From a bacterium (lineage in GTDB: Bacteria; Hinthialibacterota; Hinthialibacteria; Hinthialibacterales; Hinthialibacteraceae), in NCBI GenBank assembly GCA_041946805.1, contig JBHGBC010000067.1, forward strand, positions 1 to 29,076: DNA of 29,076 nt. Direction: 5' to 3'. The position numbers and the translations under genes are program-made. The notes below the pieces were generated by a model. The model did no database searches and was not told the DNA's origin. It worked only from the letters and a program-made list of their open reading frames with translations. The stretch's first letter is position 1. Each line of letters starts with the position of its first letter. This document shows positions 8,423-29,076 of the stretch, one piece after another.

Positions 8423-10279
8423 ATGTCCGTATCGGCAATTTGGCGGTTTCTCGCGGGGATTCTGATGGTAGTGAGTGTTCCGGGTGTGGGAGAGGCCTTG
8501 AATCCCATCGGTTCGGAAATCCGGCAGCGGAAAGTGGCCGTACTGAATCTGACCCAACGTAACCATGAATCTCCCGCCAATGTTTTTTCCCTGGAGCACG
8601 CGATGCAGGTTGCGGGAGTTCCCTACATGGTGACCACGGACGTAGCCGCCGCCTGCGAATCCCGGCTGGTTTTGATCACATCGGCCTTGCATCCCAACAC
8701 CTTGAGCGCGCCGGAAAAGAACCAGCTGGTGGAATACGTGTGGGACGGCGGCGTGCTGGTGGCGCCCAACATCCGCGATGTCTTTTTCTATCCCCTGTTC
8801 GGGATCAGCGGGTACGCGCAGGGAAAATTCCGGAGCCAGATGACCTGGCTTACCGCCAACTTTCCGGCGATGGGCCGCTGGATCGATGATCCCAACGAGA
8901 TCGTTATCCGGTTGAGCAATCCCGGTAAATATCCGGAAGGACTAACGACGCAATCGTATGTGTTGAATGGATCCAAGTCCTTGGCCGAATTTGACGACCG
9001 TGGGCCGGCGGTGACCCTCTACCCGTTCGGCCAGGGACAGGCCGTGGCCCTGGGCTTTTCGGTCAGCGATTTGATCTCGCGGAATTTGTTCAACAACGAT
9101 CTGGAAGCTCAACGCATCTATTCGAACGGCTTCGAACCGGCCACCGATACCTTGATCTTTTTCCTGCTCTCGCTGGCCGAGCAATATGTTCCCTATACCG
9201 TCCGGAAGCACACCAGCCCGGGGCGCAGCCGGTCCACGCTGATCCTGACCCATGATATCGACGCGACGAGCTCGATGAATAACATGCTCTATTTCGCCCG
9301 GGGGGAATCGCTGCGGAATATCCGCGCGACCTATTTCATCACCACCCGGTATTTCAGTGATTTTTTTTTCAAGCCTTATTACAACCCCGAAACGGTTGCG
9401 ATTGTCAACCGTCTGCTCGATTACGGCCAGGCGCTGGCCAGCCATACCGTCGGTCATTTCCTGGATTTCAACGTGATCGGTTACGGCGCTCCCGGCAACA
9501 CGAGGGAAAACTACAGTCCTTACTACAATGAGAACATGCAATCGGTGGGCGCCACGTTGTATGGCGAGTGCGAAGTCTCCAAACAGGTGCTCGAGGCCGA
9601 CACGGGAGTCTCCATCACGTCGTTCCGCGCCGGGCATTTGGTCACGCATAAATATCAGACCAATGTGTTGGACGCATTGGGATACTTGTATGATTCCTCC
9701 CTCAGCGCGAATGATATCCTGACCAATTTCCCCTATTTCATGTTTTTTGACAAATCCATCAATTCCCCTATATCGAACGTAATCGAAATTCCCCTCACGA
9801 TTTCGGATGTATATGGAGATGAATTCAACGAGTTGAATTACGAGGAGGCCGTCAATGTATGGCTGGATGTCATTGCGAGGAATAGGGCCAATTCCGCGCC
9901 GGCCGTGTTGTTGATCCACCCCACCAAACTCATCAAATACACGGCGCAAGAATTGCTGTTGGACAACCTGCCCCATGATGTTATCGTCATGGACATGGAT
10001 TCCTATGGGGATTTTTGGCGCCGGCGCCTCGTGTTGCCGTTTGAAACCGGCCTATCCGGCCAGACTCTGACCATTGCCTTTCAATCCCCGAAAGAAGAGA
10101 TCGATCCCCGCCTCAGTTTGACCATCCGCGGCGGGGCCCGGCTGGAGGAAATCCAAATCCTGTGGAATGGGAATCCGGTGTACTATTTTGATCTCGATCC
10201 CTGGACCGGGGACGACGTGATTGTATCCAACATTCACGTTCAGGAATTCGTGGGCGTGGAGGATTGGGCGCGGTATTGA
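8423..10279 (+). CDS. Secreted polysaccharide deacetylase (NodB/CE4-like) with N-terminal GATase-like domain
   Basis: Signal peptide (…VGEA); LTHDID, SHTVGH, SFRAG, YDSS, LLIHP motifs; ends VEDWARY. Confidence 0.8.
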   Translation: MSVSAIWRFLAGILMVVSVPGVGEALNPIGSEIRQRKVAVLNLTQRNHESPANVFSLEHAMQVAGVPYMVTTDVAAACESRLVLITSALHPNTLSAPEKNQLVEYVWDGGVLVAPNIRDVFFYPLFGISGYAQGKFRSQMTWLTANFPAMGRWIDDPNEIVIRLSNPGKYPEGLTTQSYVLNGSKSLAEFDDRGPAVTLYPFGQGQAVALGFSVSDLISRNLFNNDLEAQRIYSNGFEPATDTLIFFLLSLAEQYVPYTVRKHTSPGRSRSTLILTHDIDATSSMNNMLYFARGESLRNIRATYFITTRYFSDFFFKPYYNPETVAIVNRLLDYGQALASHTVGHFLDFNVIGYGAPGNTRENYSPYYNENMQSVGATLYGECEVSKQVLEADTGVSITSFRAGHLVTHKYQTNVLDALGYLYDSSLSANDILTNFPYFMFFDKSINSPISNVIEIPLTISDVYGDEFNELNYEEAVNVWLDVIARNRANSAPAVLLIHPTKLIKYTAQELLLDNLPHDVIVMDMDSYGDFWRRRLVLPFETGLSGQTLTIAFQSPKEEIDPRLSLTIRGGARLEEIQILWNGNPVYYFDLDPWTGDDVIVSNIHVQEFVGVEDWARY

Positions 10280-10512
10280 GGGGGGGGGAGAGGGCTGTGA
10301 TCCGTGGATCAGGGGGATTCCCCGCGGAGGCCGAGAACGCCGAGGGTGTTCTCTCGACCAATCCGGGGATCCAGAGGGGGAACCATTGACCCGAAGGAAG
10401 CCATGTTTCTGGCGCGCCGTTGGCGCTCACAAAAACAATTCCGCCAATCGGCCAACAGAAGCATCAAAAGTTCTACATCCTCCCGTCCCTAACCGATACG
10501 GCTTATCCGGCG

Positions 10513-10782
10513 TTACTTGAGATAGGACCGCAGGATAGCCGCCACTTGCTCCAGGTCCTCGCGCTGAGCCGGATCCGCGGCCGCGCCAAGGTGTTCCCGG
10601 ACATGCCCCTCCAGCACTTCGGCCATCAAGCCATTCACCGCGCCCCGGATGGCGGCGATCTGCTGCAAGACCGCGGAACACGCGGTTTCCTGTTCCAGGG
10701 CTTTGAGTAACGCTTCCACCTGTCCCCGGATGCGCCGCGTCCGGATCAGCAGCTTCTTTTTGCCCGCGATCGTGTGAGCCAT
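10513..10782 (-). CDS. RcnR/DmeR-type (CsoR/RcnR/FrmR family) metal-sensing repressor, 89 aa
   Basis: MAHT…RRIRGQVEAL…C…QQIAAIRGAVNGLMAEVLEGHVREH; His3, Cys35, His60, His64 match the RcnR Ni/Co ligand pattern. True start ATG at 10782, not 11040. Confidence 0.9.
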   Translation of the reverse strand: MAHTIAGKKKLLIRTRRIRGQVEALLKALEQETACSAVLQQIAAIRGAVNGLMAEVLEGHVREHLGAAADPAQREDLEQVAAILRSYLK

Positions 10783-10806
10783 ACCGTATCCCCATTGCCA
10801 GGAATC

Positions 10807-10825
10807 TATACTGATGTATAGTATA
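10807..10825. promoter_or_regulatory. RcnR/DmeR-type operator between divergent genes
   Basis: TATACT-GATGTAT-AGTATA inverted repeat, i.e. TACT-N7-AGTA spacing as in the E. coli RcnR site; overlaps -10-like hexamers (TATAAT 10822-10827), TTGCCA at 10795-10800. Confidence 0.75.
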
Positions 10826-10861
10826 ATGCCAAATCCTTGGACTCCAAAGGCACCATACCGG

Positions 10862-11809
10862 ATGACCGTTCCCTTTTCGCTGGAATCCTGGCGCCACTCG
10901 CATGTCTTTGACGAAGGCAATCCCCTGGCCGAGAGAAACACCCGCTGGGCTGTCGCCCTCACTGCGCTGATGATGGCCGCCGAGATCACCGGCGGCTGGA
11001 TCTTCAACTCGATGGCCCTGCTGGCGGACGGCCTGCACATGAGCTCGCACGCCCTGGCGCTCGGACTGTCCGCCCTGGCCTACCTGGCGGCGCGCCGCTA
11101 TGCTCACGATCCGCGGTTTGCGTTTGGGACCTGGAAGATCGAGGTGCTGGGTGGCTATACCAGCGCCATTTTTTTAGTGTTGTTCGCCGGATTGATGCTG
11201 TTCCAGTCCGTCGAACGCCTGCTCGCGCCGATGCCCATCCACTACGACCGGGCCATCGTCATCGCCTTGGCGGGCCTGGCAGTCAATCTGGCCTGCGCCT
11301 GGCTGCTCCAGGACGGCCAGGGACACGGTCAGGGACACGGCCACGCCCACGCGCCGGCGAATCACCCGCGGCATCATGATTTGAACCTGCGTTCCGCCTA
11401 TCTCCACGTGGTTGCGGACGCGGCCACCTCGGTGCTGGCCATCTTCGCGCTGGTGGGCGGCAAGTACTGGGGCGCGCGCTGGCTCGATCCCGCCATGGGC
11501 ATCGTGGGCGCCGGGCTGGTTTCCGTGTGGGCCTACGGGTTGCTGCGCGATACCGGCCGGGTGCTGCTCGACGCCGAGATGGATGCGCCGGTGACGGAGG
11601 AAATCCGGGAACTCATCGCCGCCGCGCCGGTTCCGGCCGGCATCAGCGATCTGCACATATGGCGCGTGGGCAAGGGTAAATACGCGTGCGTCCTTTCCCT
11701 CGTCGCTCCGGGCGGCGTCACGCCGGATTATTTCAAACGGCGCTTGGGCGTGCACGAAGAGTTGGCGCATATTACCGTGGAGGTGAACGATCCGGCCTCC
11801 GCGCCGTGA
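10862..11809 (+). CDS. dmeF: CDF-family Co(II)/Ni(II) efflux transporter
   Basis: WRHSHVF N-terminus, SMALLADGLHMSSH, FAFGTWKIEVLGGYTSA, His-rich loop, HDLNLRSAYLHVVADAATS, DLHIWRVG. Start taken at ATG 10862 because 10814 lies inside the operator. Confidence 0.9.
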   Translation: MTVPFSLESWRHSHVFDEGNPLAERNTRWAVALTALMMAAEITGGWIFNSMALLADGLHMSSHALALGLSALAYLAARRYAHDPRFAFGTWKIEVLGGYTSAIFLVLFAGLMLFQSVERLLAPMPIHYDRAIVIALAGLAVNLACAWLLQDGQGHGQGHGHAHAPANHPRHHDLNLRSAYLHVVADAATSVLAIFALVGGKYWGARWLDPAMGIVGAGLVSVWAYGLLRDTGRVLLDAEMDAPVTEEIRELIAAAPVPAGISDLHIWRVGKGKYACVLSLVAPGGVTPDYFKRRLGVHEELAHITVEVNDPASAP

Positions 11810-11982
11810 AGCCGGGGTAGAAGCGGCGCCGATAGGGGGGATGACCTTCGGGGAGAGGGGCATGCATCACCACGGACACAGGTCATCAGGGGACCGTGGA
11901 GATCCGCTCGATCCCAAGTGGATAACCGCGGGTGACAATTCACGGTGGCATTATCTTTCCCTCGATTGCAAAATGGGGAACC

Positions 11983-13329
11983 TTATTCCACCGTGATGGA
12001 TGGTCCCATGATTTGATTGAACGCGATGTAGTTTTGGTAATGGTGAATGGAAACCCAATCCGCCAGGGGATCATCCCGCAGGCGGCGGTTGATTTCCCAG
12101 AGCACGGCGTTCATCCCGCCGGCCGTGGAATAATCCTGCGTCCGGGCGCCGATGGAGTAGCGGGTATTGTGACCGCGGGCAAGTGCGATAACCGGTGCGG
12201 CGTATTCCAGAATGGCGTCCGGCGTGGTTTTGGTATAGGCCATGATACTGACTTGGTTGACGGATCCGCAGAGTTGGTCCATGGCTCCGGAGTTGTATTT
12301 CACATAATACGGAGCCACATCCGCTTCGAGTGCCGCCTCCATATTCTCCGCGGCGATTTTCCACCGTGCTTCCGCATACATTTCCGCCAGCATTTGGATC
12401 CATGCGGCCCGGGTTTCCGGAGAGGCGCCGGTCCATTCGGATTGCGCTTCCGGCTCGATGTCCAGATGCAGTCCCGCGAAGCGTGCTTCCTCGGTGTATG
12501 ACCGATTCAACGCCGCCACGCGTTCGATCCAATTCAGCAATTGATACCGGTATTCGGAGTAGAACCAGCGCGTTGAACTGACCAGCGCGGAGGTTTCGAT
12601 CCCGCTGGCGCGCAATTTCGCGATCATCCCCGGCAGGAGTTCCAGCATCGCGGGCGTATTCAGGACCGTTTGGTTGGTGGAAAAGTACACTTTGCGGATT
12701 TGATACAGCAGGCAAGTATCGTGGAAAGCCTGAACGGCCGCCTCGCTCACCAGAATCTCCTCCTCGTTCCAAACCCAAACCGCGCAGTTCCGGCCGGCGT
12801 CCGCTTCCGGTGTGGGAGTGGCGGTCGGCGTGGCAGTGGGTTCCGGCGTCTCGGTGGGCTCCGCCGTGGGTGTGGGGGTCACCGTGGGCGTGGGAGTCGC
12901 GGTGGAGGTGGCGGTCGGCGCCGGCGGGGGAGGGGAAGTGGGTGTGTCCGTGGCCGTTGGGGTTGGTGATGGGAAAACCGTGGGCGTGGCAGTGGATGTG
13001 GAAGTATGTGTGGCTGTCGGGGTTGCTGCGGGATCCGGCCGGCCGGCAGGCGTCGGTGTGGATTTCTTTTTTCCCTTGGAGGTTGAAATGGGAGCGGCGG
13101 GATTCATGCTCTTATCCTGGGAACCGGCCGCCCCGATGGGGTCTGTCGCGCTGGAGATGGCCGGGGAGCTGAAGACCTCGGGGGGGATATCGAGCGGGAA
13201 CAGCATCGCTTGGGCGGAGCTTTTCCGGACGGGATAAGCCCAGCATAGGATTAACAGGATGGGAATCAATCCGCTCCGGTACTTCTGATGAAGACGGGGA
13301 AACGGGTATGGCGGTGAAAACGGTTTCAT
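11983..13329 (-). CDS. Secreted protein: Pro/Thr-rich linker plus GH18-like TIM-barrel domain
   Basis: RBS GGGAGGGG before ATG 13329; hydrophobic signal region; PT-rich stalk; AVWVWN…FAGLHLDIEPE…SIMAY…SIHHY domain. Confidence 0.75.
   Translation of the reverse strand: MKPFSPPYPFPRLHQKYRSGLIPILLILCWAYPVRKSSAQAMLFPLDIPPEVFSSPAISSATDPIGAAGSQDKSMNPAAPISTSKGKKKSTPTPAGRPDPAATPTATHTSTSTATPTVFPSPTPTATDTPTSPPPPAPTATSTATPTPTVTPTPTAEPTETPEPTATPTATPTPEADAGRNCAVWVWNEEEILVSEAAVQAFHDTCLLYQIRKVYFSTNQTVLNTPAMLELLPGMIAKLRASGIETSALVSSTRWFYSEYRYQLLNWIERVAALNRSYTEEARFAGLHLDIEPEAQSEWTGASPETRAAWIQMLAEMYAEARWKIAAENMEAALEADVAPYYVKYNSGAMDQLCGSVNQVSIMAYTKTTPDAILEYAAPVIALARGHNTRYSIGARTQDYSTAGGMNAVLWEINRRLRDDPLADWVSIHHYQNYIAFNQIMGPSITVE
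12805..13060 (-). repeat. Low-complexity Pro/Thr linker coding repeats
   Basis: Encodes TPTATHTSTSTATPT…PTATPTATPTP. Confidence 0.8.
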
Positions 13330-13580
13330 GACAGAGTCCCCTCCCGCGGCCGGGTTCATGAGTGATCCGCGCGGAACGCCGCGAAGAAGGGGGCTGCTCC
13401 GCCCGGCAGCCCTGCTGCCCGGTCCACGAATCCCGTGGAGGTGGGCCAGAAGCTTTGCGTCCCACCCTTTCGGATGGTTTGCCTTTCTCAGGCGTGAAAA
13501 CCGGTTGAGAGAAAAAATTACCTCATCGCTCTTCCCTCCGGCCGGATGGGGCCGGTTTCCTGCAAATCAGGGCAAAACAT

Positions 13581-13612
13581 AGATAAGAAAACTGCCAGAT
13601 AAGAAAACTGCC
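13581..13612. repeat. Perfect 16-bp tandem direct repeat
   Basis: AGATAAGAAAACTGCC x2. Confidence 0.9.
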
Positions 13613-13993
13613 TATTGCCGATCCGTCTGGGTTTTGGGGACCGGTACGAGCAAAAAGAGAGCCAAAAGAGAGTAAGCGAATTACAAGATTGGCGCTCTTG
13701 TAGTTTTGTAATATAAACATGTAAATGAAGTGGATTTTTCCGGGAACCGGATGGGTTTTCCTGCTCAAAAATCAAAGGTTAGGCGGGATGCGCCCGGGTG
13801 GTTTTTTCGGGTAGCGGTTCGGGAATGGCGATATGGAAAACGGCCGCTTACCGGCCCTGGGCCAGCGACTGTAATCCGAATGCGATTACAGTAACTGGCA
13901 TGGTTACACAGGGGACCGCCGGGTGGGATCGGCAGGATCCGCCGGCGTGGAATGCCGGATTTTCGATAATTTGCAGTGAGTATCCTATAATGC

Positions 13994-14023
13994 TTGACAA
14001 AAGGGTCCATGCCGATTTATAAT
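13994..14023 (+). promoter_or_regulatory. Consensus sigma70-type promoter
   Basis: TTGACA (13994-13999), 18-bp spacer, TATAAT (14018-14023), followed by a very AT-rich tract; points toward the GT2 operon. Confidence 0.65.
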
Positions 14024-14683
14024 TCATAAATTAATTTTTATATAATTTTGCTTATAAACTCGGAAGAGTATTTTTAATAATTGGTTTATCCAGAAGCAAT
14101 AGTAATATATTTTGAAATATCATGCATGAATTATTCGGATATCCGGTACGAGTGGAATCGTTCTCGGAACCCTATCCATGGGGAAAGCTGGGATTGGGAA
14201 GAACGGCAAACCGTTCCAGGAACCTGATATCTCCTTATTAAAGTTTTGTAATACTAACGGCGAAAATAGGACCAAAGCAGGAAACGGCGAAGGCCGGCTG
14301 TTTCATAGGGCTTTCATTCGATGAGTTATCTTATGTCCTTTTTTCAGGGGATTTGGATACGTCATGGCAGGGACGGAGGGAGAAGTTGGTGTGACACCCC
14401 CATGGATAACTCGATGGTTCTGAAATGGTTAAAACCCTCATTGGAGCCAGGAAGCCTTTCATCCCGTGTATTGTCCATGGGAGACTCCACCTTATTTGTC
14501 CATCCATCCTTCTCGTGGAATTGAAGACGGCGCTTTTTTCCGGCAGCCATGGGCGCCCGGCGGCGGTCCGGGAACAATCGAGAAGCCGGGTCTCTGGATT
14601 ATGAGAGGAAGGGGAGTTTTTTTTCATTCGCGCATGGCATCGGATACCCGCCTCGCCGGCCGGTATCGGGAAGAGGACCAATC

Positions 14684-16141
14684 ATGACGGGCACCCTGAC
14701 GGAGAAAGAATTCAAGTTCACGCTCCTGGCGAATCCAAAATCCAAACTGGTTCCCGATGGCATCGAAACTCTCGTACCCGGGGTGGACTTGATCCAGGGG
14801 GAGGCTATCGATGTAGCCTCGTTTCTGGCCACGGACGTTTTTTTGATTTGCTTCGACGATCCGGAATGGGGATGGAGCCATGTCAAGGCGCTGCGGCAGG
14901 ATGAACATCAGCTGATCAAGCCCGTCGCCTCCCTCTCTCTGGATCCGCTGGAAGGTCCGGAGGATATGCTCGATGAGCAAATCCTGCTGTCGGGGGACCG
15001 GCTCCAGGCGGGCAAACAACTCGGCACCTTGAAGCGGCTCTCGCAGGAGGCGGTCCAATTCCCCATCACGCCCGAGGGAATCGAGGAATGCAAGCGCCGG
15101 GAGATCTTGTTTTTGAGTTACATAGCCGTCCGGGCGGCCCGGGGCAACGGCCTGCGGCCGCAAGTGGACATCGCCGCCTCGACCGGATACACCTACCCGC
15201 TCGTATCGCTGTTTCTCCAGTATCCGTGCGTTAAGGCGCATGAAGTGCTGGACAGCTGGGAGAAGGCCAAGCTGCTGCAGGGTGAAATCGTGGACCGGAT
15301 CAATCTCTGTCCCCAGTGCCGGCATTACAACCTCAATTTCCGGGAAGTGTGCCCCCTGTGCGGGTCGGGCCGGATTCAGGAAGAGTCGACCATTCACCAT
15401 TTTTCGTGCGGGTATATCGGCTTTGAACGCGATTACACCCAGGGGATGAAATGGATCTGCCCCAAGTGCGGGAAGGATTTGCGGCATATCGGAGTGGATT
15501 ACGACAAGCCGGTGGACAACATCTGGTGTTCGGACTGCCACGCGAATTTCTCCGAACCCGCCGTCCAGTGTTTTTGCCTGCATTGCCGGAAAATATCCAC
15601 TCCCGCGGATTTGGTACTGCGGCCGATCTACCGCTATCACCTGACCAACATCGGCCTCCGGTACGCGCGGAACGGAGTGCTGCCCGAGTTCGGCTTCATC
15701 GACCTGCTCAAGGACAATTTCAACCTGTACGACGTCAATGTTTTCAGGGAATTCCTGCGGATCGAGGTCCTGCGGTGCCGGCGGTACAAGTTTGATTCCT
15801 CGTTGATGGTGATCCAGGTGGAAAATTTCGGAGAACTCTGGGAGCGGATGGGGCTGGATTTCGTCATCCGGATGCGCAAGGAATTCATCGACTTGTTGAA
15901 ACGGGACCTCCGCAATACCGATCTCCTCGCGGTTCTGGGTGGCAATGAAATCGCCTTGCTGCTGACCAACACGCCGATTCAGCAGACCGATATGATTTTC
16001 GACCGGCTGAAGCGGTATTTCGACTCCGTCTTCGAGCACCAACTCCGGTTGAATGGCGGCCGGTACGACTTGTCGAGGGAGAATGCCGGCCTGGAAAGGT
16101 TTTTGACGGATGGTAGCCGCCCTGCTGCAGAGCCTTTTTGA
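14684..16141 (+). CDS. Multi-Zn-ribbon (TackOD1-like) protein with C-terminal degenerate GGDEF domain; probable c-di-GMP receptor
   Basis: RBS GAGG before ATG 14684; CPQC, CPLC, HFSC, CPKC, CSDC, CLHC; RNTD (RxxD I-site) five residues before GGNEI. Confidence 0.8.
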   Translation: MTGTLTEKEFKFTLLANPKSKLVPDGIETLVPGVDLIQGEAIDVASFLATDVFLICFDDPEWGWSHVKALRQDEHQLIKPVASLSLDPLEGPEDMLDEQILLSGDRLQAGKQLGTLKRLSQEAVQFPITPEGIEECKRREILFLSYIAVRAARGNGLRPQVDIAASTGYTYPLVSLFLQYPCVKAHEVLDSWEKAKLLQGEIVDRINLCPQCRHYNLNFREVCPLCGSGRIQEESTIHHFSCGYIGFERDYTQGMKWICPKCGKDLRHIGVDYDKPVDNIWCSDCHANFSEPAVQCFCLHCRKISTPADLVLRPIYRYHLTNIGLRYARNGVLPEFGFIDLLKDNFNLYDVNVFREFLRIEVLRCRRYKFDSSLMVIQVENFGELWERMGLDFVIRMRKEFIDLLKRDLRNTDLLAVLGGNEIALLLTNTPIQQTDMIFDRLKRYFDSVFEHQLRLNGGRYDLSRENAGLERFLTDGSRPAAEPF

Positions 16142-17414
16142 GTTCATCGGGCAATTGACGTGGGAACGGTTCTTCCGGACCTTCTGGTATTATCTCGTCC
16201 TGGACTTCCCCCGTTACATTCTGTTCGATTTCGTCGTGGTCTTCCTGATCTTCAAGCAACGGCTGCGGGCCGCCGTGTCCCGCCGCCAGGCCTTGTTCGA
16301 TCATCAGTTGCAAAACCATCCTCCCCTCGTTTCCGTGATTGTGCCCGCCTTGAACGAGGCGGCTACCATTCCTTATACCATTCAAACCCTGCTCGAACAA
16401 TCGTACAAGAACCTGGAAATCATCCTGGTGGACGATGGATCGGATGACCATACGGCCCGGATTGTCCAAGTCTTCGATCCCGCGCGGGTGAAATATTTCC
16501 GGCTGGCGGTGCGGTCGGGCAAAGCCGCGGCCTTGAATTTCGGATTGCGGCGCGCACGGGGCGAGTTCATCGTTTTCATCGATTCGGATTCGACCCTGGA
16601 ACGGGACGCGGTGTACGAGGTTTTGCGGCCGTTCTCCCATCCCAAGGTGGGGGCGGTGGCCGGCAATCTCAATCCCCGCAACGCGGGGGACAATTTGTTG
16701 ACCACGCTGCAGACGGTCGAGTATCTGTTCACCATCACCGTCGGGCGCCTCGTGCGGGCCCGGGCGAACATCCTCTCCATCATCTCCGGCGCGTTCGGCG
16801 CGTTCCGCCGCTCGGCGATCGATTTGGATTTCATCGGCGGGCAGGAGCCGGGGCCGGGCAACGATTCCGATATCACGATCCGGGTCCGGAAGGTGGGATA
16901 CCGGATCGAGTTCGTCCCGGAAGCCATCTGCCGGACGGACGTGCCCATCCGGCTGCTCCCGTTCTTTCGGCAACGCTGGCGCTGGGACCGCAACCTGATC
17001 AAGAACCGCCTGCGCAAGCACCGGGATGTGTTCAACATCTTCGCGCATCATTTCAATTTGTACAATTTTTTCTCCTTCCTTGATTTGATTTTCTTTCATT
17101 GCGTGCTGGCGGTGCTGGCCCCGTTGTATATCATCGACATACTGGCCAACTACCGCCGGGACGCGCTGATCATTTTTCTGATGAATTATTTCATATACAC
17201 CTTTTCCTCCATGCTGGAATTGACCGCCGCCTCCTATATCACCCGGCGGTGGAGCTACATGCAATTTATCCCCTATCTGTTCATCTACAACTTCTATCAC
17301 AAGATGATGAAGTTTTCCCGGTTGTTCGGATACGTTCAGGAACTGTTTTTCTTCTATTCCTATCACGATCCCTTCGCGCCGAAAAAAGTCAGGGAAAGGA
17401 TATTGCGATGGTAG
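16110..17414 (+). CDS. Processive GT2 polysaccharide synthase (PgaC/IcaA/HasA-like)
   Basis: N-terminal TM, VIVPALNE, DDGS, GKA, DSD, GND, QRWRW, C-terminal TM helices; overlaps upstream gene by 32 nt. Confidence 0.9.
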   Translation: MVAALLQSLFEFIGQLTWERFFRTFWYYLVLDFPRYILFDFVVVFLIFKQRLRAAVSRRQALFDHQLQNHPPLVSVIVPALNEAATIPYTIQTLLEQSYKNLEIILVDDGSDDHTARIVQVFDPARVKYFRLAVRSGKAAALNFGLRRARGEFIVFIDSDSTLERDAVYEVLRPFSHPKVGAVAGNLNPRNAGDNLLTTLQTVEYLFTITVGRLVRARANILSIISGAFGAFRRSAIDLDFIGGQEPGPGNDSDITIRVRKVGYRIEFVPEAICRTDVPIRLLPFFRQRWRWDRNLIKNRLRKHRDVFNIFAHHFNLYNFFSFLDLIFFHCVLAVLAPLYIIDILANYRRDALIIFLMNYFIYTFSSMLELTAASYITRRWSYMQFIPYLFIYNFYHKMMKFSRLFGYVQELFFFYSYHDPFAPKKVRERILRW

Positions 17415-20622: not shown

Positions 20623-20758
20623 CATCGAATCCCGCGGATCCCGGAGGAAGCCGCTTCGCTGGCCCCGGCAACCCATGGTCCTCTCTTTTTGAGGGAGGCG
20701 GCCGGCGGGCCGCTCCCAACCGGGTGGTTTTTCAAAGTTTAATGACCGGATGGTCCGC

Positions 20759-21880
20759 TTAGGCTCCGGTCTGTGGCTGGAGCGGCCTGATCCGCTCGAG
20801 CAGCCAGGCGTCGAACTGCTCCTGGCGGTGCATGGTCCAGGCGGCGTGGATGACATGGGACCGCGCGGCGAGTTCGGACAACCGGGATTCGTGGGGGATC
20901 AGGCGGATCGCGTCTTTCTCGGTGAACAGCACCGGGTGTTGCCGTGATTTCAGGGCGAAGATCCGGATATCATTGTCCGCGAACCAATAGTGATCCGGAT
21001 AACGCAGGTGTTCCTGTACACGCAGCCCCAGCGCGCGGGCCTGTTTTTCCAGACGCTCCGGCGATCCGATTCCCGAAACCAGGATGACCGGCGTTCCGGT
21101 GAAATGTTTGACCGGGATCCCGGGCGTGCCCCGCTGTTTCATCCAGGTTTCGAGGGGAATCAGGTCGATCCATTCCAAGGTCCCGGAGAAGACCGGGCAA
21201 TACTCGGGAAGAGGGAGCCTTTTCGCGGGGGACGAAGGCGCGCCGAGAAAAACCACGGCGTCCGCGCGGCTCAAGGCCGGCAGCGGTTCCCGTAACGGGC
21301 CATACGGCAGGCAATGCCCGTTGCCCTCGGGCCTCTCGGCGTCGAGCAGAACGAAATCGAGGTCGCGTTGGACCTGGAGATGTTGAAAACCGTCGTCCAG
21401 CAGCACGATGTCGCATTCCCGCTTGGCGGTGAGGGTGTGGATGAGCGCGCCCCGGTCCGCCCCAATGCCGATGGGCGTTGGCGTGTACCGGCTAAGCAGC
21501 GCGGGTTCGTCTCCATACGCGGTGATTGAATGAGGATGGAGCGAACCGGAGCGAAGGATGAGTGGCGAGGAGGTTTGGCGGCCGTATCCCCGTAAAACGA
21601 TGGCCGGGTGGAATCCGTTGTATTGCAGCCAGTCGGCCAGATACAGTGTGAAGGGTGTTTTCCCCACTCCCCCCACGGTCAGGTTGCCCACGGAGATCAC
21701 CGGAACCGGGAACCGCCTTCTCCGAAAGTAATCCTTCTCGTAGAGCGCGCGGCGCAGGCGGGCGGCGCGGCCATACAGCCATGCGAGCGGGAGCAAAACC
21801 GGCGCCAGGCCGCGGAGCGGACCGCGGTGGTGATAGGCCAGATCGTGCCACGCGTGCGGGAGGGTGTTCCCCCGGTTCAT
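20759..21880 (-). CDS. lpxK: Tetraacyldisaccharide 4'-kinase
   Basis: PVISVGNLTVGGVGKTP, RGYG, GDEP, LLDDGFQH, LPYGPLREP, YPDHY, TEKD. Confidence 0.96.
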   Translation of the reverse strand: MNRGNTLPHAWHDLAYHHRGPLRGLAPVLLPLAWLYGRAARLRRALYEKDYFRRRRFPVPVISVGNLTVGGVGKTPFTLYLADWLQYNGFHPAIVLRGYGRQTSSPLILRSGSLHPHSITAYGDEPALLSRYTPTPIGIGADRGALIHTLTAKRECDIVLLDDGFQHLQVQRDLDFVLLDAERPEGNGHCLPYGPLREPLPALSRADAVVFLGAPSSPAKRLPLPEYCPVFSGTLEWIDLIPLETWMKQRGTPGIPVKHFTGTPVILVSGIGSPERLEKQARALGLRVQEHLRYPDHYWFADNDIRIFALKSRQHPVLFTEKDAIRLIPHESRLSELAARSHVIHAAWTMHRQEQFDAWLLERIRPLQPQTGA

Positions 21881-23211
21881 GCGCTTCGGTCATCCTCCAG
21901 GACAGGTTGGATCCATTGTACTATGGTTCGCAGCGCGCCTTGATTTTTTTCCACGGCCTCCCGGGCGCGTGTTCCCATGCGTTGTCCCAGGGCGGGATCC
22001 AGACATAGCCGGCGGATTGCTTCGCGCAATTCCGTTTCGTTCGCGACCTGGAGGGCGGCTTCTTCCCGCACCAACAGGGCGGCGGCGTCCCGGAAATTCT
22101 GCATGTTTGTCCCGAAAATCACCGGCTTGCCCCAGGCGGAAGGCTCGATGGGATTCTGCCCTCCGCGCACCCACATGGATTTGCCGATGAAGACCAGGTC
22201 GGCGGCGGCGTACACGTGGCGCAACTCGCCGATGGTGTCCAGCAGGATCACCGTGTTGGATTTCATGCCCGGGGTGGTTGCATCGAGTGTGGAACGGCGC
22301 GCGAGAGGGGCGTGGAAAGCCTTCAACTCGTCCAGGATGGCGTTCACCCGTTCCACGTGCCGGGGGGCGATCACAAGGCGCAGGGGATGCCCTTCCGCCC
22401 GCACGACTTGAAGGACGCGGAGCAGCAGGACTTCCTCCCCCGGGAAGGTGGAGCCGGCCACGAGGAGGATTTCCGCTTCGGAGACCTGAAACAGCCGGCG
22501 CCATTTCTCACGCTCGGCGGGATCGTCCGGAATGACGGCGGCGTCGAACTTCAAGTTCCCCGCGGGGATCACCCGCCCGGCGGGCGCGCCGATCCGCCGA
22601 AACCGGTCCGCGTCGGCTTCGCTCTGGGCGAGAATATGGTGAAACAGGCCCAGGAGGGGAGAGAAGAGCGGCGCCAGTTTCCGCAAACGCCGGAACGATT
22701 GATCGGAAAGGCGGGCATTGATCAAAAACAAGGGGATATCCAGTCCGGCGGCGGCGCGGAGAAAGTTGGGCCATAGTTCGGTCTCCAAAATCATCACGCA
22801 AGCCGGCCGTGTCCATGCCAATACCCGCCGGCACAGCGGGTACAGATCGATGGGCAGATAGAGCGAGAGATCCGCTTCGTTCAGAGTGCGGGCGAGTTCC
22901 TGGCCGGTGGAAGTCACCGTGCTGACCAGAATCTGGAAGGCGGGGAAATGTTTTTTAAGTTCCACTAACAACGGACGCGCGGCCTGTAGCTCACCCACGG
23001 AGACGGTGTGAATCCAGATGTAGGGCCCTTGCCGGAGGCGCTGCCATTTTTCCGGCGAGTAAAAAGTCAACCGTTCGCGCAGCCCTGCCCGGTATTTTGG
23101 AGTGGCCAGCATCCGGAACAAGTAATAGGGGGCGGCCAGGGCCAGACCCGCGTACCCCAGCAGGCCCCAACATTTCAAATGGAATCGTTCGAGAGAATGG
23201 TGCGCGTTCAT
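21877..23211 (-). CDS. waaA: Kdo transferase
   Basis: IWIHTVSVGE, ETELWPN, NARLS, GNLKFD, AGST, IAPRHVER, DTIGEL, GGQNPIEP; ATGA overlap with lpxK. Confidence 0.96.
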   Translation of the reverse strand: MNAHHSLERFHLKCWGLLGYAGLALAAPYYLFRMLATPKYRAGLRERLTFYSPEKWQRLRQGPYIWIHTVSVGELQAARPLLVELKKHFPAFQILVSTVTSTGQELARTLNEADLSLYLPIDLYPLCRRVLAWTRPACVMILETELWPNFLRAAAGLDIPLFLINARLSDQSFRRLRKLAPLFSPLLGLFHHILAQSEADADRFRRIGAPAGRVIPAGNLKFDAAVIPDDPAEREKWRRLFQVSEAEILLVAGSTFPGEEVLLLRVLQVVRAEGHPLRLVIAPRHVERVNAILDELKAFHAPLARRSTLDATTPGMKSNTVILLDTIGELRHVYAAADLVFIGKSMWVRGGQNPIEPSAWGKPVIFGTNMQNFRDAAALLVREEAALQVANETELREAIRRLCLDPALGQRMGTRAREAVEKNQGALRTIVQWIQPVLEDDRSA

Positions 23212-24548
23212 TCGGTTGCCGTGTCGATTCCGGCCAGGACCTGCGGCGACGGCCGGGGCAGCCGGGCCATCGCTTCATCCACCAGGGGAACGTAATAGAG
23301 GTCGAGTATCCGGTTCCAATCGTAATGATCGAGCGCCCGTTCGCGTCCAGCCTGGCCCAGGCGGGCGCGCAAGGCCGGGTCCTGGATGAGCCGGCGCAGG
23401 GCCTCGGCCAGGGCTTGGGGATCGCCCGGTTCGACCAAGATGCCGGTTTTCTCATGTTCCACGGTTTGCTGCAATCCTCCGATCCGGCTGGCCACCACCG
23501 GCAGGCCGGAGGCCATGGCTTCGGGGGCGGTGATCCCGAACGGTTCGATCCAGGTGGAAGGAACCGCCACGATGTCCATCTGCTGATACAACCGGGGCAA
23601 CTCGTCTTGATCCACCCAGCCCTGGTTGATCAGCCACGGCCGCGGGGAAGGGCAATCCAGGGCGGCGGTGTAATGGACTTCAAAGGAGAGATCCTCCCGC
23701 GCGAACCGGTCACACGCCTCGATCAACACTGACAAGCCCTTGAGGGGATCGTTGGCGCGGCCGGAGAGGAAGATTCTCACCGGCCGGTCCTCCCGCGGCC
23801 GGGGCGGAACGGGAGTGTAGCGTTCGCTGTCCACTCCCGAGGGGATGACGCGGATGTTCTTCACGTACGGGGCGAGCCGGTTGCGCATGAAGGGATTGTA
23901 CACGATCGCCCCCTGCAGCCGGGCAAGATTGCCTAATAATTTTTGGCGGTACGACTCGCTGAAGGCTCCGCTGAACAGGTACTCCTGGGAAAAATGCAGC
24001 ACCGGATGCTTTTCCTTGAATCCCAGCCCGATCTGCAAGGCGCGGACCAGGGCGGGCGCGCGGCGGAACCAGCAACGGTGGCATTCGCAGGGGTTTTCAA
24101 AATAGCCCTGGTTGCATATTCGGTTTTCGTGATAGCGGTAATAATGCAGGTTGACGCAGAGCAGCTCGTATGAATAAAACCGCAGGAAGCACCGTTCCGG
24201 ACCAAAGGCGGTCAGGAGATGGTTCTTCATGAAATACCCGTCCATCAAGAAGATCAGATCGGGCTTGTATTGCTCCACCGCGTGGCGGATGCGCTTCATC
24301 ACCGTGGAAAAATTGAACGAGAACCGGTTGAAGGGTATGCACACGGTGTGAAAAGGAAGATTCCCCTCCACATGGCCGCGGGGATAGTAGGTTTGAAAGT
24401 CGGGGGTGAACAGGCACACGGAGGCTCCCCGGTCCTGCAAACCCTGGATCACATGGTACGCGTCGATCCAGCATCCGCCCACCGGCGGCCAGTTGAAGGT
24501 CAGATCGACAAACGCGATACGTGGCGATATGGCGGTGCGCATTTTCAT
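23208..24548 (-). CDS. GT4 glycosyltransferase with Cys-rich insert
   Basis: IPSGVD, KG, PSTWIEPFGITAPEAMASGLPVVASRIGGL GT-B motif; ATGA overlap with waaA. Confidence 0.9.
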   Translation of the reverse strand: MKMRTAISPRIAFVDLTFNWPPVGGCWIDAYHVIQGLQDRGASVCLFTPDFQTYYPRGHVEGNLPFHTVCIPFNRFSFNFSTVMKRIRHAVEQYKPDLIFLMDGYFMKNHLLTAFGPERCFLRFYSYELLCVNLHYYRYHENRICNQGYFENPCECHRCWFRRAPALVRALQIGLGFKEKHPVLHFSQEYLFSGAFSESYRQKLLGNLARLQGAIVYNPFMRNRLAPYVKNIRVIPSGVDSERYTPVPPRPREDRPVRIFLSGRANDPLKGLSVLIEACDRFAREDLSFEVHYTAALDCPSPRPWLINQGWVDQDELPRLYQQMDIVAVPSTWIEPFGITAPEAMASGLPVVASRIGGLQQTVEHEKTGILVEPGDPQALAEALRRLIQDPALRARLGQAGRERALDHYDWNRILDLYYVPLVDEAMARLPRPSPQVLAGIDTATE

Positions 24549-24632
24549 AAGTCAATTATGGTACGCAAGGACGCCGATATCCTCCAGTGGCGCGAAGGGA
24601 ATTTCCCTTGTGAACAATCAGGACGTCTGGCG

Positions 24633-27620
24633 TCAGTACAGCCTGAAATCCTCGATGCCGGTGGGTCGTGATGAGCCTGTGAGACGGATGTCATCGATCA
24701 CGAATGTCCCGCCGCCGGCCGGCGATTGCTGCAACGCCGCGCCGTCACCGGTGTTGATCAGTGTGGAGAACCATCCGAAGCGGCGTTCCGGCATCAGCGG
24801 TTGGCTTCCTGAATTCAAGGGAACCGGGCCCGCGGTCCGTTCCTGATCGATCCACACATTATACGTTCCGCGCGTCTGGTCGATATCCACTTGAAAATGG
24901 AAGGTCTGCCCGGCCTGATAGGAGATGCCGGTGGCTTCCAGCACTCCGTCTCCATCCCGGTCCGCCAGCAGCGCACCCTGGCTGCCAAAAGCCATGACCG
25001 GAGGGCCGGCCGGGGCGGGCAGGCGGAGGCTGCCACTCGGCAGGGGCACATCCGATTCACGGGTGCTCAAGAACAACGCCAGGCCGGTTTGGTCCGTCTG
25101 CAGGGCGGCCGCCGACCAACGCAAGGTCAGATACGGGGAGTCCACCGGCGCGGCCAATTCGGGAATCACGAAACTGTAAGGCGTGGTGCGCAGGGTGGAG
25201 AGGGGATTCAGTGTCCTCGCCGGGTAGAAACGGGAGAAATCCACGGGGGCATGGCGGTCGGCGATGAGCAGCGCGTACAGGCTGTGGCCATCCGGAGCTT
25301 CCACGTAGGCCGCCTCGGACGAGGGCGCGCCGATCCACAAATCAGTCCCCGCCAGATAGGTCTCGGATTTGTTGGAGAACCCAGTGGTGCGGGTTTCGAT
25401 GGGCAGGCCGGAAGAGCGCGGTTCCAAGTCGTCGATCCGCCTTTCCGAGCGTGCGGGGTGGTTTTCGAAATCCTCCAGGAAGAGCAGCCGGCTGCCGGCG
25501 GGTTCCACCGGAGGTGCAAAGGGATGCGGCTCGAACGATCCACCCTGGATATCGCTCACCAGGAGAAGATCGTCATAGATGATTTCACCTCCCGCCTTGC
25601 CGCCCATCCGCCCGCCACGCATATCTGTTCCCCGCAGGCTGCCATCCGCGCCGGGAAGGAGTGTGCCGCGCGCGAGAGCTTCGGCTCCGCCGTCCAGGTA
25701 CAGATTCCATTCCGCCGATTCCAGATCCAGATCCAGCCGGAATCCAAACCGGCGTCCCGCCTCATAGGGCTGTCCAGTGGCCTCCAGAAGTCCGTCTCCG
25801 TCAGGATCCACGCCAATCATACCATTATCCATGAATCCAACGATGAGCCGCTGCCAGGCCTCCCCGCCCCCGCCCCCCGAGAGCATCAGGCGGCCGCACT
25901 CCACGTCACGTTGTTGGGGACTGGCGGACCAGGCGATCCGCGCCGTGCGGGTCAATTCATGATTTGGAGCGGTATTGTCGAGGAGTACGATTTCCGCGAC
26001 GGTGGTGGTTCGCAACGCTTTCCAACTCCAGCCGCTGGGATCGGACGCGATGACGCCAGGGAAATTCGGTGCGGGATTCACGGTTCCATCCGCGAAGGAT
26101 TCAAACGACTCATGAACGTGCGCCCGGTAGCGGTTTTCGCCGGAACCGTGGGGAATGGGATTGACCGAAACCAGCAGCAGGTTGTCGATATCGGCTTCGC
26201 CTCCCGTGGCTTGAAAGGTAAAGCCCGTTAGGTCCAGATCGCCGTTCCAACGGCCTTCCGCCGTTAACAACGCCGTATCGGCCACGGTGGGTGATGTGGC
26301 GCGGTACATCGTGACCTTGATTATTTTTTTATCCGGTTGGAACGTCACCACGAACCAGTGGGGCAAATCCGGGAGAATGGCGATGGATGTTTCGTCCAGC
26401 GCGCCGTCGCCGTTTGTATCCAAGGAAAGAAGGCCGTCCGCAGGGAGATTCATGAGGACTTCACCGCCGGCGGCGCGCAATTGCACCTGACTCCCGGACC
26501 GGGGGGTGAGGGCGAAGGAGAGGCGGATTTCGCCGGTCAGCGGTTTTTGTTTCGATACGAGGAATCCCAACGCACTATCCGCCATGAGATGTCCCCGGGC
26601 CAGGGATTGATAGGAGGCGTCCTCCACGACTTGCACCGAGCCCAGGGTGATGATCCGCGTGCCGAAGAGATCACCCCCGCGCGCGGACGGAAGCATGCCC
26701 GGCCATTCGTCGTCGAAATCCTCCAGGAACAGGGGAATCACGGCCGCGTCCTGGGCCACCACCGGCGGACGGAAAGCGAGGGGGCGGTAAGGCGCGTCGG
26801 GATCGATCTGGAAGACATTGTCATAGGCGAAGGTTCCCAGGCCCCGAGCCGAGGAGATCAATTCCAACTCGCGCAGGGTGCGTCCCGCCGCGCCGCCGAT
26901 CTCGAAGAAGGGGAGGTCCTCACGCGCCAGGACTCCGTTGATATACACGTCGTAGACCGACTGCTCCAGATCGAAAATGAGCACGAAAAAGGCAGGCCGG
27001 TTCGCGCGGTAGCCCGCCCCGAGATCGTCGATCGTGGCGCCCCCTTCTTGGTTGATGGTAATCCGGCCGGAAAAGTCCATGCCGGGAATCGGATTGCCTG
27101 TGTCGAACTCGCGGTACACGCCGCCGAAGCTGAGCAGGTTCAAACCTTCCGGTCCGGCGTCGACCACCGTGTCGGTTTCGGGAAACATCGCGCCGCCCGG
27201 CTCGTTTTCCTGGTAAGGGACCGCCATCCACGATACCACGGCCTTGCCCGCGAGATCGCCCTGGTCGAGGAGGATCGACTCCAGCAGCGAGACGCCGCCG
27301 TCCGCGCCGAAGGACCCGTCCCCCGGATCGGCGCCGCGGTCCTCGAGGCGCAGGACCGCGAGGCTCAGCCCGGTGGGATCGGGGACATAACGCGCCAGCG
27401 GCCGGGTCTTCCCGTTACCCGCGGGGGCTTCGATTTCGATCTCGCTGCCCCAGAGCCGGCCCCGGAAGCGGACGCGCTCGACGCCCTCGGGCAGGATGCC
27501 GGCCGCGCGGGTATCCGCGTCTTCGAACGACTCGTAGAACAAAGCCCGGTCCGCCCAACCTGGAGCCGCAAGCCCCGCCATACTGATAAAAGCGAACATC
27601 ACGGGTAAAACTGATTTCAT
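24633..27620 (-). CDS. Large secreted protein with four tandem beta-sandwich-like repeats
   Basis: Signal peptide (…PGWA); RBS AAGGA; four repeats each starting F/H-x-E-S/D-F and ending Y/I-D-N/D; ends PTGIEDFRLY. Confidence 0.8.
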   Translation of the reverse strand: MKSVLPVMFAFISMAGLAAPGWADRALFYESFEDADTRAAGILPEGVERVRFRGRLWGSEIEIEAPAGNGKTRPLARYVPDPTGLSLAVLRLEDRGADPGDGSFGADGGVSLLESILLDQGDLAGKAVVSWMAVPYQENEPGGAMFPETDTVVDAGPEGLNLLSFGGVYREFDTGNPIPGMDFSGRITINQEGGATIDDLGAGYRANRPAFFVLIFDLEQSVYDVYINGVLAREDLPFFEIGGAAGRTLRELELISSARGLGTFAYDNVFQIDPDAPYRPLAFRPPVVAQDAAVIPLFLEDFDDEWPGMLPSARGGDLFGTRIITLGSVQVVEDASYQSLARGHLMADSALGFLVSKQKPLTGEIRLSFALTPRSGSQVQLRAAGGEVLMNLPADGLLSLDTNGDGALDETSIAILPDLPHWFVVTFQPDKKIIKVTMYRATSPTVADTALLTAEGRWNGDLDLTGFTFQATGGEADIDNLLLVSVNPIPHGSGENRYRAHVHESFESFADGTVNPAPNFPGVIASDPSGWSWKALRTTTVAEIVLLDNTAPNHELTRTARIAWSASPQQRDVECGRLMLSGGGGGEAWQRLIVGFMDNGMIGVDPDGDGLLEATGQPYEAGRRFGFRLDLDLESAEWNLYLDGGAEALARGTLLPGADGSLRGTDMRGGRMGGKAGGEIIYDDLLLVSDIQGGSFEPHPFAPPVEPAGSRLLFLEDFENHPARSERRIDDLEPRSSGLPIETRTTGFSNKSETYLAGTDLWIGAPSSEAAYVEAPDGHSLYALLIADRHAPVDFSRFYPARTLNPLSTLRTTPYSFVIPELAAPVDSPYLTLRWSAAALQTDQTGLALFLSTRESDVPLPSGSLRLPAPAGPPVMAFGSQGALLADRDGDGVLEATGISYQAGQTFHFQVDIDQTRGTYNVWIDQERTAGPVPLNSGSQPLMPERRFGWFSTLINTGDGAALQQSPAGGGTFVIDDIRLTGSSRPTGIEDFRLY

Positions 27621-27672
27621 CGTACATCCTTTCTTCTTTGTGATGATGATTGGTTACACGCCTTGTGCTTTG

Positions 27673-27719
27673 CCGTAGGTTGAAACCAACGGCTATCCCA
27701 ATGAATCCCCTTCGGGGAT
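27673..27719. repeat. Two-hairpin REP-like element
   Basis: CCGTAGGTTGAAACCAACGG hairpin followed by ATCCCC-TTC-GGGGAT hairpin, intergenic. Confidence 0.55.
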
Positions 27720-27836
27720 GAAACAGGTGGTGAACCGATCATCTTCCAGCTGATCAATGGTTTTTAAATTTTCGAGTCGTATTTCCGTTTGCATCCCCCT
27801 CCTGACCACTCCCAAAATATGGGGGGAAAAAAAGAT

Positions 27837-28553
27837 TCAATGGCTGCCACGCCACAGGTCGCCGTTGGAAACCAGGCCGTTGGATGGATCGTATGTCCGG
27901 GCGTGGAGATAGTTCCGCAGCAGGGCGGGGGACCGCTGGCGCGTGGAAGTCCCCATGAACGAAGCCATGAGGCTGTATTCCGTCTCTTCGCCGTCGGCCA
28001 GGATGAAGGCGGTGGGCTCGTCGATGTCGCCCCGGTGGTTCAGGTCGTTGATCCCTTCGTTCTGATCGCGATCGGGGCCGAAACTGGTGATGATGTAACC
28101 CATGCGCCCGCCCGCGTAGCCGTAAGGCAACACCGGATTGCCCGAGAAAGGATCCAGGGGCGCTTGGGCGATATAGGAAATGGGCGAGGTCAGGCAGGGC
28201 ACTGGTGTTCCGGCTTTTGACGTCTGGAAGGTCACGAATTCCTCGATCAACGCAAAATCCATCCTCCCCGAGAGGAAACTTTCGCCGAGATTGTCCGTCG
28301 CGGGAGGAAACTGGTTGCGGTCCAGGCGGAACATCATCACCGCCTTGGCCACGGCGTCCAGGTCACCGTTGGTTTTGGCGGTCTGGGCGCGGAGGCGGGC
28401 CTGGAGGAAATTGGGCACGGCGATGGCGCTGAGAACGCCGAGAATGGCGGTCACAATCAATAACTCGATAAGGGTAAAGGCGCGCTGTGGGGCGGAAACC
28501 CTACCCGGGGCAATGCCATTCATAAAGCGGTTTCGAATGATTGAGTTTGGCAT
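27837..28553 (-). CDS. Prepilin-type N-terminal cleavage/methylation domain protein (GspG/pilin-like)
   Basis: RA|FTLIELLIVTAILGVLSAIAVPNF class III signal with Glu5; LTSPISYI…DPF, SFGPD, YDPSNGLVSNGDL. Start 28553 or 28523. Confidence 0.9.
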   Translation of the reverse strand: MPNSIIRNRFMNGIAPGRVSAPQRAFTLIELLIVTAILGVLSAIAVPNFLQARLRAQTAKTNGDLDAVAKAVMMFRLDRNQFPPATDNLGESFLSGRMDFALIEEFVTFQTSKAGTPVPCLTSPISYIAQAPLDPFSGNPVLPYGYAGGRMGYIITSFGPDRDQNEGINDLNHRGDIDEPTAFILADGEETEYSLMASFMGTSTRQRSPALLRNYLHARTYDPSNGLVSNGDLWRGSH

Positions 28554-28603
28554 GGATGAATCGATTTAATAAATCCTATCTGTTGTAATGGTAATAATAT
28601 TTT

Positions 28604-28635
28604 TGTTATGGTATCATAACATATGTTGGAGTCAA
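28604..28635 (-). promoter_or_regulatory. Pilin-gene promoter overlapped by an 18-bp palindromic operator
   Basis: Minus strand TTGACT-16 bp-TACCAT with TG extended -10; TGTTATG-GTAT-CATAACA inverted repeat at 28604-28621; AT-rich context. Confidence 0.6.
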
Positions 28636-28712
28636 GATAACCCGGTCGATTTTTTCCCCCTGGCGCGCGCGGCGGGAAAAACACTTCGATTGCGAAAGGC
28701 GTCGAACAAATG

Positions 28713-28736
28713 AAAAAGGCCCGAAATTTCCGGGCC
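28713..28736 (-). terminator. Probable intrinsic terminator
   Basis: Minus strand GGCCCG-GAAATTT-CGGGCC followed by TTTTT, about 55 nt after the stop at 28792. Confidence 0.7.
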
Positions 28737-28791
28737 GATTACTCAAGAGAATGACTCTGATTTACCCTTATTTACCGGGGAGGTAAAAGGT

Positions 28792-29076
28792 TCAGTACAA
28801 TTCCCACCTCTCGGGAACCAGACCCGAGGCTACCGGCGCCAAGGTCAGAATCCCCCACTGGGTTTCGTTATCCCATCCGCCATCGACATCTCCGTTCCAC
28901 CGGTATTGAGCGTCCCGGTTGTCCTGATTCGGAGTGTCACGGTCATCGATGGCGATGTCAAAGCCGATTTTGGACACGAATCCGGCCGTGGATTGACGGA
29001 ATTCGATGATCCAGCCGGTGCCATCCGCTTTCACCGCGCCCTTGCTTTCAATATCACCCGCGGGAGCACTGGCCAC
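28792..29076 (-). CDS. C-terminal fragment of a CBM9-like (sugar-binding) domain protein (partial)
   Basis: GWIIEF…IGFDIAIDDRD…W…WGILTL pattern typical of CBM9/DOMON-like domain ends; terminates VPERWELY; runs off window end. Confidence 0.65.
   Translation of the reverse strand: MASAPAGDIESKGAVKADGTGWIIEFRQSTAGFVSKIGFDIAIDDRDTPNQDNRDAQYRWNGDVDGGWDNETQWGILTLAPVASGLVPERWELY

Follow-up and report, generated by a model that had tools for sequence, protein, structure and literature searches.

Three proteins encoded in a 29,076-nucleotide stretch of DNA from a member of the Hinthialibacteria (GenBank contig JBHGBC010000067.1; the whole stretch is hereinafter denoted the window) end in a common sequence of about ten residues, a tag that recurs at protein C-termini throughout the same genome. 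This tag is a real, modular and strictly terminal element of Sec-exported proteins in two phyla, and it is not catalogued in Pfam or NCBIfam. It is very probably a C-terminal sorting or docking label on Sec-exported soluble enzymes and binding proteins, the association with such proteins being directly observed. As for the mechanism, we put at roughly 40% the probability that the tag is a minimal sortase signal derived from the linker of the C-terminal domain (CTD) of type IX secretion system (T9SS) substrates, with export by type II secretion and processing by a clade of PorU-type peptidases.

A terminal tag on exported proteins

The analyzed genome (G000) comprises 6.70 Mb in 315 contigs and is 96.8% complete; gene calling with a hexamer model yielded 4541 genes, of which the 4299 with a stop codon and at least 80 codons for amino acids were used. 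The C-termini were scored with an iterated 10-column matrix, which was trained on the same protein set that it scores, and a protein was considered tagged if it scored above 8 bits at 0–3 residues from the stop. The termini fall into two score groups, with few between 0 and 12 bits, and 154 of the 4299 proteins carry the tag. The distance from the tag to the stop is 0 residues in 116 of these proteins, 1 residue in 34, and 2 and 3 residues in 2 each; further in, there are 0–2 matches per position. Chance is excluded because the matches peak 0–1 residues from the stop and drop to this level beyond it; the rate at the very terminus (116 of 4299) compares with 147 matches among 1,633,454 internal windows.

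The tag follows the pattern [PG]-[TAVS]-x-[VI]-x-[DE]-W-x-[LVI]-[YFHQ], with column counts, out of 154, of [PG]-T(81)/A/V/S-[APGRS]-V(114)/I-[EPSA]-D(67)/E/G-W(139)/F-x-L(91)/V/I-Y(79)/F/H/Q; the Trp is thus found at −4 in 139 tags, and Tyr or Phe at −1 in 106. Selection by Trp alone (W at −4 in 111 of 1141 secreted vs 60 of 2698 non-secreted proteins) yields the same profile. Among 153 secreted proteins picked by Trp alone, Pro alternates along the tag, being common at −10, −8 and −6 (39, 30 and 22 cases) and rare at −9, −7 and −5 (3, 2 and 2). The back-translated pattern matches 28 sites in the genome and the reversed pattern none, and the copies differ by synonymous codons.

Signal peptides, called with a heuristic predictor developed for this analysis rather than SignalP, are present in 129 of the 149 complete tagged proteins (126 of type I and 3 of the lipoprotein type) compared to 1399 of the 4077 other proteins (odds ratio 12.3, p = 2e-38). 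No Tat motif was detected in the 154 tagged proteins, and 146 of the 149 complete ones lack a transmembrane helix. With the tails removed, the tagged proteins form 83 BLAST clusters. Pfam, run on 24 of the 154, identified LTD/CotH, CBM9, CBM96, LamG, beta-lactamase-like, MtrC/F-like multiheme cytochrome, rhodanese and PPDK-N domains, and 8 of the 24 matched no family. The tag can be present or absent between close paralogs, for example, in a pair with 77% identity, and hence is an appended module. Two tagged MtrC/MtrF-like multiheme cytochromes (L208:229-2142 and L208:6313-8361) are not called lipoproteins by the heuristic, so that the tag may take the place of a lipid anchor. Another tagged protein, of 1028 amino acids (L210:2844-5930), contains a PPDK N-terminal (AMP/ATP-binding) domain, which is unusual for an exported protein.

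In the window, copy 1 of the tag (FVGVEDWARY at 10247..10279, plus strand; 19.0 bits) terminates a 618-amino-acid signal-peptide protein with a polysaccharide-deacetylase-like domain (8423..10279, plus strand; PF01522 below the cut-off). In the AlphaFold (AF2) model of the deacetylase, tail residues 612–617 form a short helix after the last strand, with a pLDDT of 71 for the last block vs a mean of 94.6. Copy 2 (PTGIEDFRLY at 24633..24665, minus strand; 19.8 bits), a Phe-for-Trp variant, ends a 995-amino-acid signal-peptide protein (24633..27620, minus strand) whose sole family match is a weak one to a sialidase-like carbohydrate-binding module. Copy 3 (SGLVPERWELY at 28792..28827, minus strand) belongs to a CBM9-like protein that is cut by the contig end, leaving the C-terminal 94 amino acids (28792..29076, minus strand; PF06452 at 21.6 bits, just under the cut-off); it falls outside the set of 154 because a one-residue insertion brings its ungapped score down to −3.4 bits. 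The other 17 called genes of the window score at most −2.4 bits. An earlier note on this DNA had thus read the window correctly with regard to the three shared C-termini, the signal peptides of the two complete cargo proteins and the lack of the tag in the other proteins; its coordinates span only the last 7–8 codons and the stop, and its consensus captured a real motif while over-weighting Gly, which occupies −8 in just 31 of the 154 tags.

No Pfam or NCBIfam model matched any of the 9 tails scanned at an E-value of 10, and a search of the ESM Atlas with the tail gave nothing above 0.80. No published description of the tag was found in a search of the accessible literature; “C-terminal” and “secret” occur nowhere in the text of PMC9324843, and none of “Sumerlae”, “Omnitroph”, “T9SS” and “PorU” occurs in 10.1101/2023.06.07.544157. 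The range of the tag was examined in 34 other genomes of the class and 75 genomes of Sumerlaeota, using the back-translated strict pattern and the reversed pattern as the control. The strict pattern matches 33 of the 34 class genomes, with 7–28 sites in each of the 19 family members (0–3 in the reversed controls), and 54 of the 75 Sumerlaeota. Many pattern-negative Sumerlaeota carry a variant, [AV]-x-[RNH]-W-x-x-Y-[ER], and for this reason presence/absence profiling in this phylum failed. The variant, found at 13–25 sites in a group of five genomes (G050, G051, G054, G056 and G060; controls at most 3), is charge-reversed, with R, N or H before the Trp and one extra terminal E or R, and the core that remains constant across the variants is W-x-hydrophobic-Y near the end. 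In a scan of a species collection, the tag was found repeatedly, among the matches listed, in records of Ca. Hinthialibacteria OLB16, “Omnitrophota”, Sumerlaeota and UBP4, amid scattered chance matches. A conserved single-copy gene has a 63% homolog assigned to Ca. Hinthialibacter antarcticus, in keeping with a placement in Hinthialibacterota. Accordingly, the expectations of the earlier note that the motif would be enriched at C-termini genome-wide and among signal-peptide proteins, that it would not belong to an assigned sorting family, and that similar endings exist in Sumerlaeota and OLB16-type genomes are all borne out, the tag being lineage-wide in this class and in Sumerlaeota.

Resemblance to T9SS signals and the PorU-type peptidases

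Among the matches listed, most of the 119 homologs of the window deacetylase are annotated with the T9SS CTD PF18962, and three with the dockerin PF00404; in the homolog alignment, the tag occupies the position of the CTD linker. These domains at the same position support the proposal of the earlier note that the tag serves export or surface attachment, by a mechanism that we infer. The mapped PorU cleavage sites read x/(GSA)(VLI) (PMC4560394 and PMC11969387). When 17 mapped P. gingivalis PorU sites (Table 2 of PMC4560394) were compared with tag positions −9 to −5, the commonest residues matched column by column at P1, P2', P3' and P4': T at P1 in 9 of the 17 sites and 81 of the 154 tags, L/V vs V/I at P2', E at P3', and D at P4' in 6 of 17 and 67 of 154, respectively. 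The mean P1'–P4' score of the PorU sites is 2.2, compared to −9.6 for the background, with none of 5000 draws as high. The strict linker expression x/[GSA][VIL] is matched by 54 of the 154 tags, with Pro or Arg at P1' in 51, and by 9 of 30 CTDs of Bacteroidota and Marinisomatota (five genomes) vs 2.6 after shuffling. The W-x-L-Y half of the tag resembles the strand that precedes the PNP of the CTD, and the four-mers of CTD beta-1 score above a Y/F-ending background (0 of 5000).

The tag shares with the tripartite signals (LPXTG, PEP-CTERM, GlyGly-CTERM and MYXO-CTERM) the design of a short C-terminal label that follows a Pro/Thr-rich linker in dozens to hundreds of unrelated exported proteins per lineage, but differs from them in that nearly all the tagged proteins lack a transmembrane helix, there is no basic tail, and the motif ends 0–3 residues from the stop. 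In this respect the earlier note was right; it is to be corrected in that the tag is not unrelated to T9SS, given the resemblance to the CTD cleavage linker followed by the first strand. Common to the tag and the T9SS type A CTD (TIGR04183/PF18962) with PorU (NF033707, 6ZA2) are the Sec cargo, the C-terminal place in the same enzyme families, apparently the T/[GSA][VIL]x[DE] linker, a PorU-type C25 peptidase with intact His and Cys, and a weak PorV/PorQ-like barrel. The differences are that the tag consists of about 10 residues, compared to 43–55 in short and 69–82 in long CTDs (PMC11969387), contains no folded domain or PNP motif and has a near-invariant Trp; with this length and no HMM match for the 9 tails, it does not qualify as a type A CTD substrate. 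In its mode of action the tag comes closest to a T9SS sorting signal, yet it is a member of neither the T9SS nor the PilY1 or tripartite families.

The genome encodes two PorU-type C25+CARDB proteins, C251 (1826 amino acids) and C259 (1281 amino acids), and C25 is present in all 35 class genomes and in 73 of the 75 Sumerlaeota (108 of 110 in the two phyla). The best PDB match of these proteins, by both sequence and fold, is PorU (6ZA2), with the profile match spanning PorU positions 59–766; the overall TM-score to 6ZA2 is just 0.36–0.37, so the domain arrangement differs from that of PorU. With the C25 domain, the catalytic His and Cys that are invariant in 30 aligned proteins, and a PorU-type N-terminal region, they can be classified as PorU-like C25 peptidases. 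A quick tree of 80 C25 domains places 55 rows from the two tag-bearing phyla together in one group (SH-aLRT 98), apart from Bacteroidota PorU, although shared clades are to be expected of related phyla in any case. Outside the conserved clade, a divergent C25 domain is found in a 4885-amino-acid secreted multidomain protein (L003, G000 C289:1380-16160). A PorV/PorQ-like barrel is detected below the cut-off in the genome (NF033709, 68.8 bits vs a cut-off of 90) and in 28 of the 34 relatives. Neither TIGR04183 (T9SS CTD) nor SprA (PF14349) was found in the genome, the positive control giving no match in either case, and a YPNP-type expression gave just 3 matches in the search for CTD substrates; the peptidases would thus be left without canonical substrates in this genome.

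Under the sortase scheme, the cargo would cross the inner membrane by Sec and then the outer membrane through a type II secretion or pilus secretin (the genome encodes 8 secretins). The tag would represent a shrunken T9SS C-terminal signal, in which a W-x-L-Y strand resembling CTD beta-1 immediately follows the linker T/[GSA]-[VI]-x-[DE], and would bind in an extended form to C251 or C259; this cysteine peptidase would cut near the start of the tag and attach the C-terminus so created to a glycan or lipid of the surface. The net outcome would be PorU-style sortase display without the T9SS translocon. We regard as somewhat unlikely a broader version, a hybrid display system of two uncultured phyla in which a 10-residue remnant of the T9SS signal would route about 150 enzymes per cell via the machinery of type II or type IV filaments, where it may dock on the pilin tip as one of many exchangeable strands, before anchoring by a lineage-specific PorU-type sortase.

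Several observations weigh against a PorU-type reader of the tag. The two C25 proteins score 212 and 165 bits against the NF033707 (PorU) cut-off of 420, and do not themselves carry the tag; of 6 unrelated genomes, 4 have C25 as well. PorU receives its cargo from PorV, and PorV (PF19572) was not found in the genome in a search whose positive control matched, nor was the PorV-like barrel found in 6 tag-positive genomes. The putative P1' is Pro in 31 of the 154 tags and Arg in 20; since most proteases fail to cleave X-Pro bonds, T/x cannot be the point of cleavage in every tag. PorU sites lack the near-invariant Trp, and PorU has been reported to cut independently of the sequence (PMC4804311). 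One Sumerlaeota clade has R, N or H in place of D and A in place of V, and no clear charge compensation was seen in the C25s of this clade, with scattered columns in both directions in a comparison of low power. No shared sorting operon was found around C25 in 28 loci, where the recurring neighbor is a TPR protein and not a barrel. Profiling for a co-occurring receptor, as advocated in the earlier note, was run, but cannot separate the candidate readers because both phyla carry the tag and C25 almost universally.

Type IV filaments, docking and other alternatives

PilC and PilY1 dock on PilK by their last 6–12 residues (10.64898/2026.02.14.705861 and 10.64898/2026.09.18.752573), and their plug contains a conserved Trp with a hydrophobic residue at W+3 (PMC13711793). 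The tag could be a plug of this type that adds a beta-strand, formed by the last 10 or so residues, to a GspK/PilK-like tip pilin, so that about 150 interchangeable enzymes would be carried on filament tips through a secretin, a possibility that we consider unlikely. The tag shares with the plug the location in the last 10 or so residues of signal-peptide proteins and the Trp followed by a hydrophobic residue at W+3, and its Pro alternation is such as an edge strand would allow. A single-copy 2144-amino-acid K-type pilin, full of DxDGD repeats, is encoded in an H-I-J-K minor-pilin operon (L233:131-11934, G000 C79) and is present in 33 of the 34 relatives; this giant K ends before the last strand in 34 of 34 database homologs and 9 of 9 class loci (kin, in partly overlapping sets), unlike other GspKs, which end in a W-containing cis strand. 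The PilY1 propeller (PF05567) was not detected in the 35 class genomes, an absence that is not firm given that the positive control was also silent. Tagged genes adjoin pilin genes in 21 of 124 cases vs 51 of 761 for untagged secreted genes (2.5-fold, p = 5e-4), and 22 of 27 such neighbors are co-directional. In the window, a GspG-like prepilin gene (27837..28553, minus strand; TIGR02532, PF07963) lies between the genes for the CBM9-like and the 995-amino-acid proteins and is co-directional with both. It is one of 131 pilin-like genes of the genome, about 120 of which belong to one GspG-like family with near-identical leaders and variable heads, scattered genome-wide; similar expansions are found in 74 of the 75 Sumerlaeota. 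A possible link between DUF1559 pilin and PEP-CTERM genes, for which no paper was found, was not used.

Other features of the filament genes speak against tags as plugs. The gene right after giant K encodes a 429-amino-acid signal-peptide protein of no Pfam family, with a conserved tail, N-[LM]-x-[FY]-[RK]-E in 20 of 20 family genomes, that resembles a PilY1-type plug without the PilY1 propeller; this is likely a dedicated plug, although it was not found with the same query in 10 more distant class genomes. The product of this gene is likely a simpler strand donor for giant K than the tags, which weakens the idea that the strand-less K is necessarily filled by tags. In Sumerlaeota, despite the presence of the tag in the phylum, none of 19 K orthologs ends at the penultimate strand, all continuing past it and keeping the cis strand, and no strand-less K was found with the queries used. 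At W−2, where the tag has E, P or S, the cis strands examined carry a hydrophobic residue; the tag is also spread over about 150 unrelated proteins that lack the PilY1 propeller, and pilin counts do not track tag counts (canonical pattern) across the 75 Sumerlaeota (rho 0.19, p = 0.11). A complex prediction with two giant-K fragments and a consensus-like tagged tail scored 0.00, but the controls were unfolded too, so this result is counted neither way.

The tag could also be an uncut, non-covalent docking or recognition peptide, akin to a dockerin, that binds neither K nor C25 but another receptor, in the periplasm or on the surface, for instance, a type II secretion substrate receptor, a TPR protein, a cohesin-like scaffold or the GspG-like paralogs; this, too, we consider unlikely. 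The replacement of the tag by dockerins in the three deacetylase homologs suggests a comparable attachment role, although the tag has no calcium-binding repeats and is one sixth as long, and a free C-terminus within 0–1 residue together with the near-invariant Trp would suit a binding pocket. In G000 and at five Sumerlaeota loci, TPR genes, not necessarily orthologous, come after the gene for the 1800-amino-acid C25, and a cohesin-domain gene heads a PilM/N-secretin operon (L235:2466-11880, encoding the cohesin-domain protein, a PilM-PilN fusion, a TPR protein and a TPR-secretin fusion). No receptor was identified, however, and a docking peptide leaves unexplained both the match to PorU sites and a PorU-like clade that would have no substrates. 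Much less plausible still, to the point of being very unlikely, is a tag with no role in export, which would instead serve in degradation, folding or regulation, or be a relic carried along when mobile gene ends were copied. The 20 of 149 complete tagged proteins that fail the signal-peptide heuristic, several of which look like start-calling errors, and a tagged rhodanese-like protein without a clear signal would fit such a tail, but the tag is kept as protein across the 83 clusters with synonymous codon variation, is present or absent between close paralogs, is kept across two phyla, and is found at the positions of known sorting domains.

Neighboring genes and implications

None of the genes in the polysaccharide-like locus of the window (11983-20622) is tagged. 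This locus encodes a TackOD1-GGDEF protein, a GT2-like glycosyltransferase, an HlyD adaptor, an outer-membrane efflux protein fused to an extra C-terminal domain, and a secreted protein with a Pro/Thr linker that appears to share this extra domain. Directly downstream of the gene for the 995-amino-acid protein are LpxK-like, KdtA-like and GT4-like genes (20759-24548), named by their sequence motifs, which are consistent with an outer membrane that bears lipopolysaccharide. The window also encodes a transglutaminase-like protein with DUF3108 (2735-4318) and an ADP-dependent sugar kinase (6564-7988).

The tag marks 3.6% of the proteome. In two little-known phyla it could serve to predict the enzymes of the cell surface, including proteins with carbohydrate-binding, LamG and CotH domains, hydrolases and multiheme cytochromes. 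The charge-reversed variant of Sumerlaeota should be useful for finding the receptor by co-variation. If the tag is a pilus plug, it would provide a linear signal of general use for loading type IV filaments, and the hybrid display, if it exists, would combine export of the type II kind, directed by a linear peptide, with a PorU sortase that works without T9SS. Should a PorU-type enzyme recognize a peptide of 10 residues with neither PorV nor SprA, the specificity of PorU would become testable with synthetic peptides; the same mechanism, if true, would explain the presence of PorU-like C25 genes outside Bacteroidota and would give a minimal display or ligation tag.

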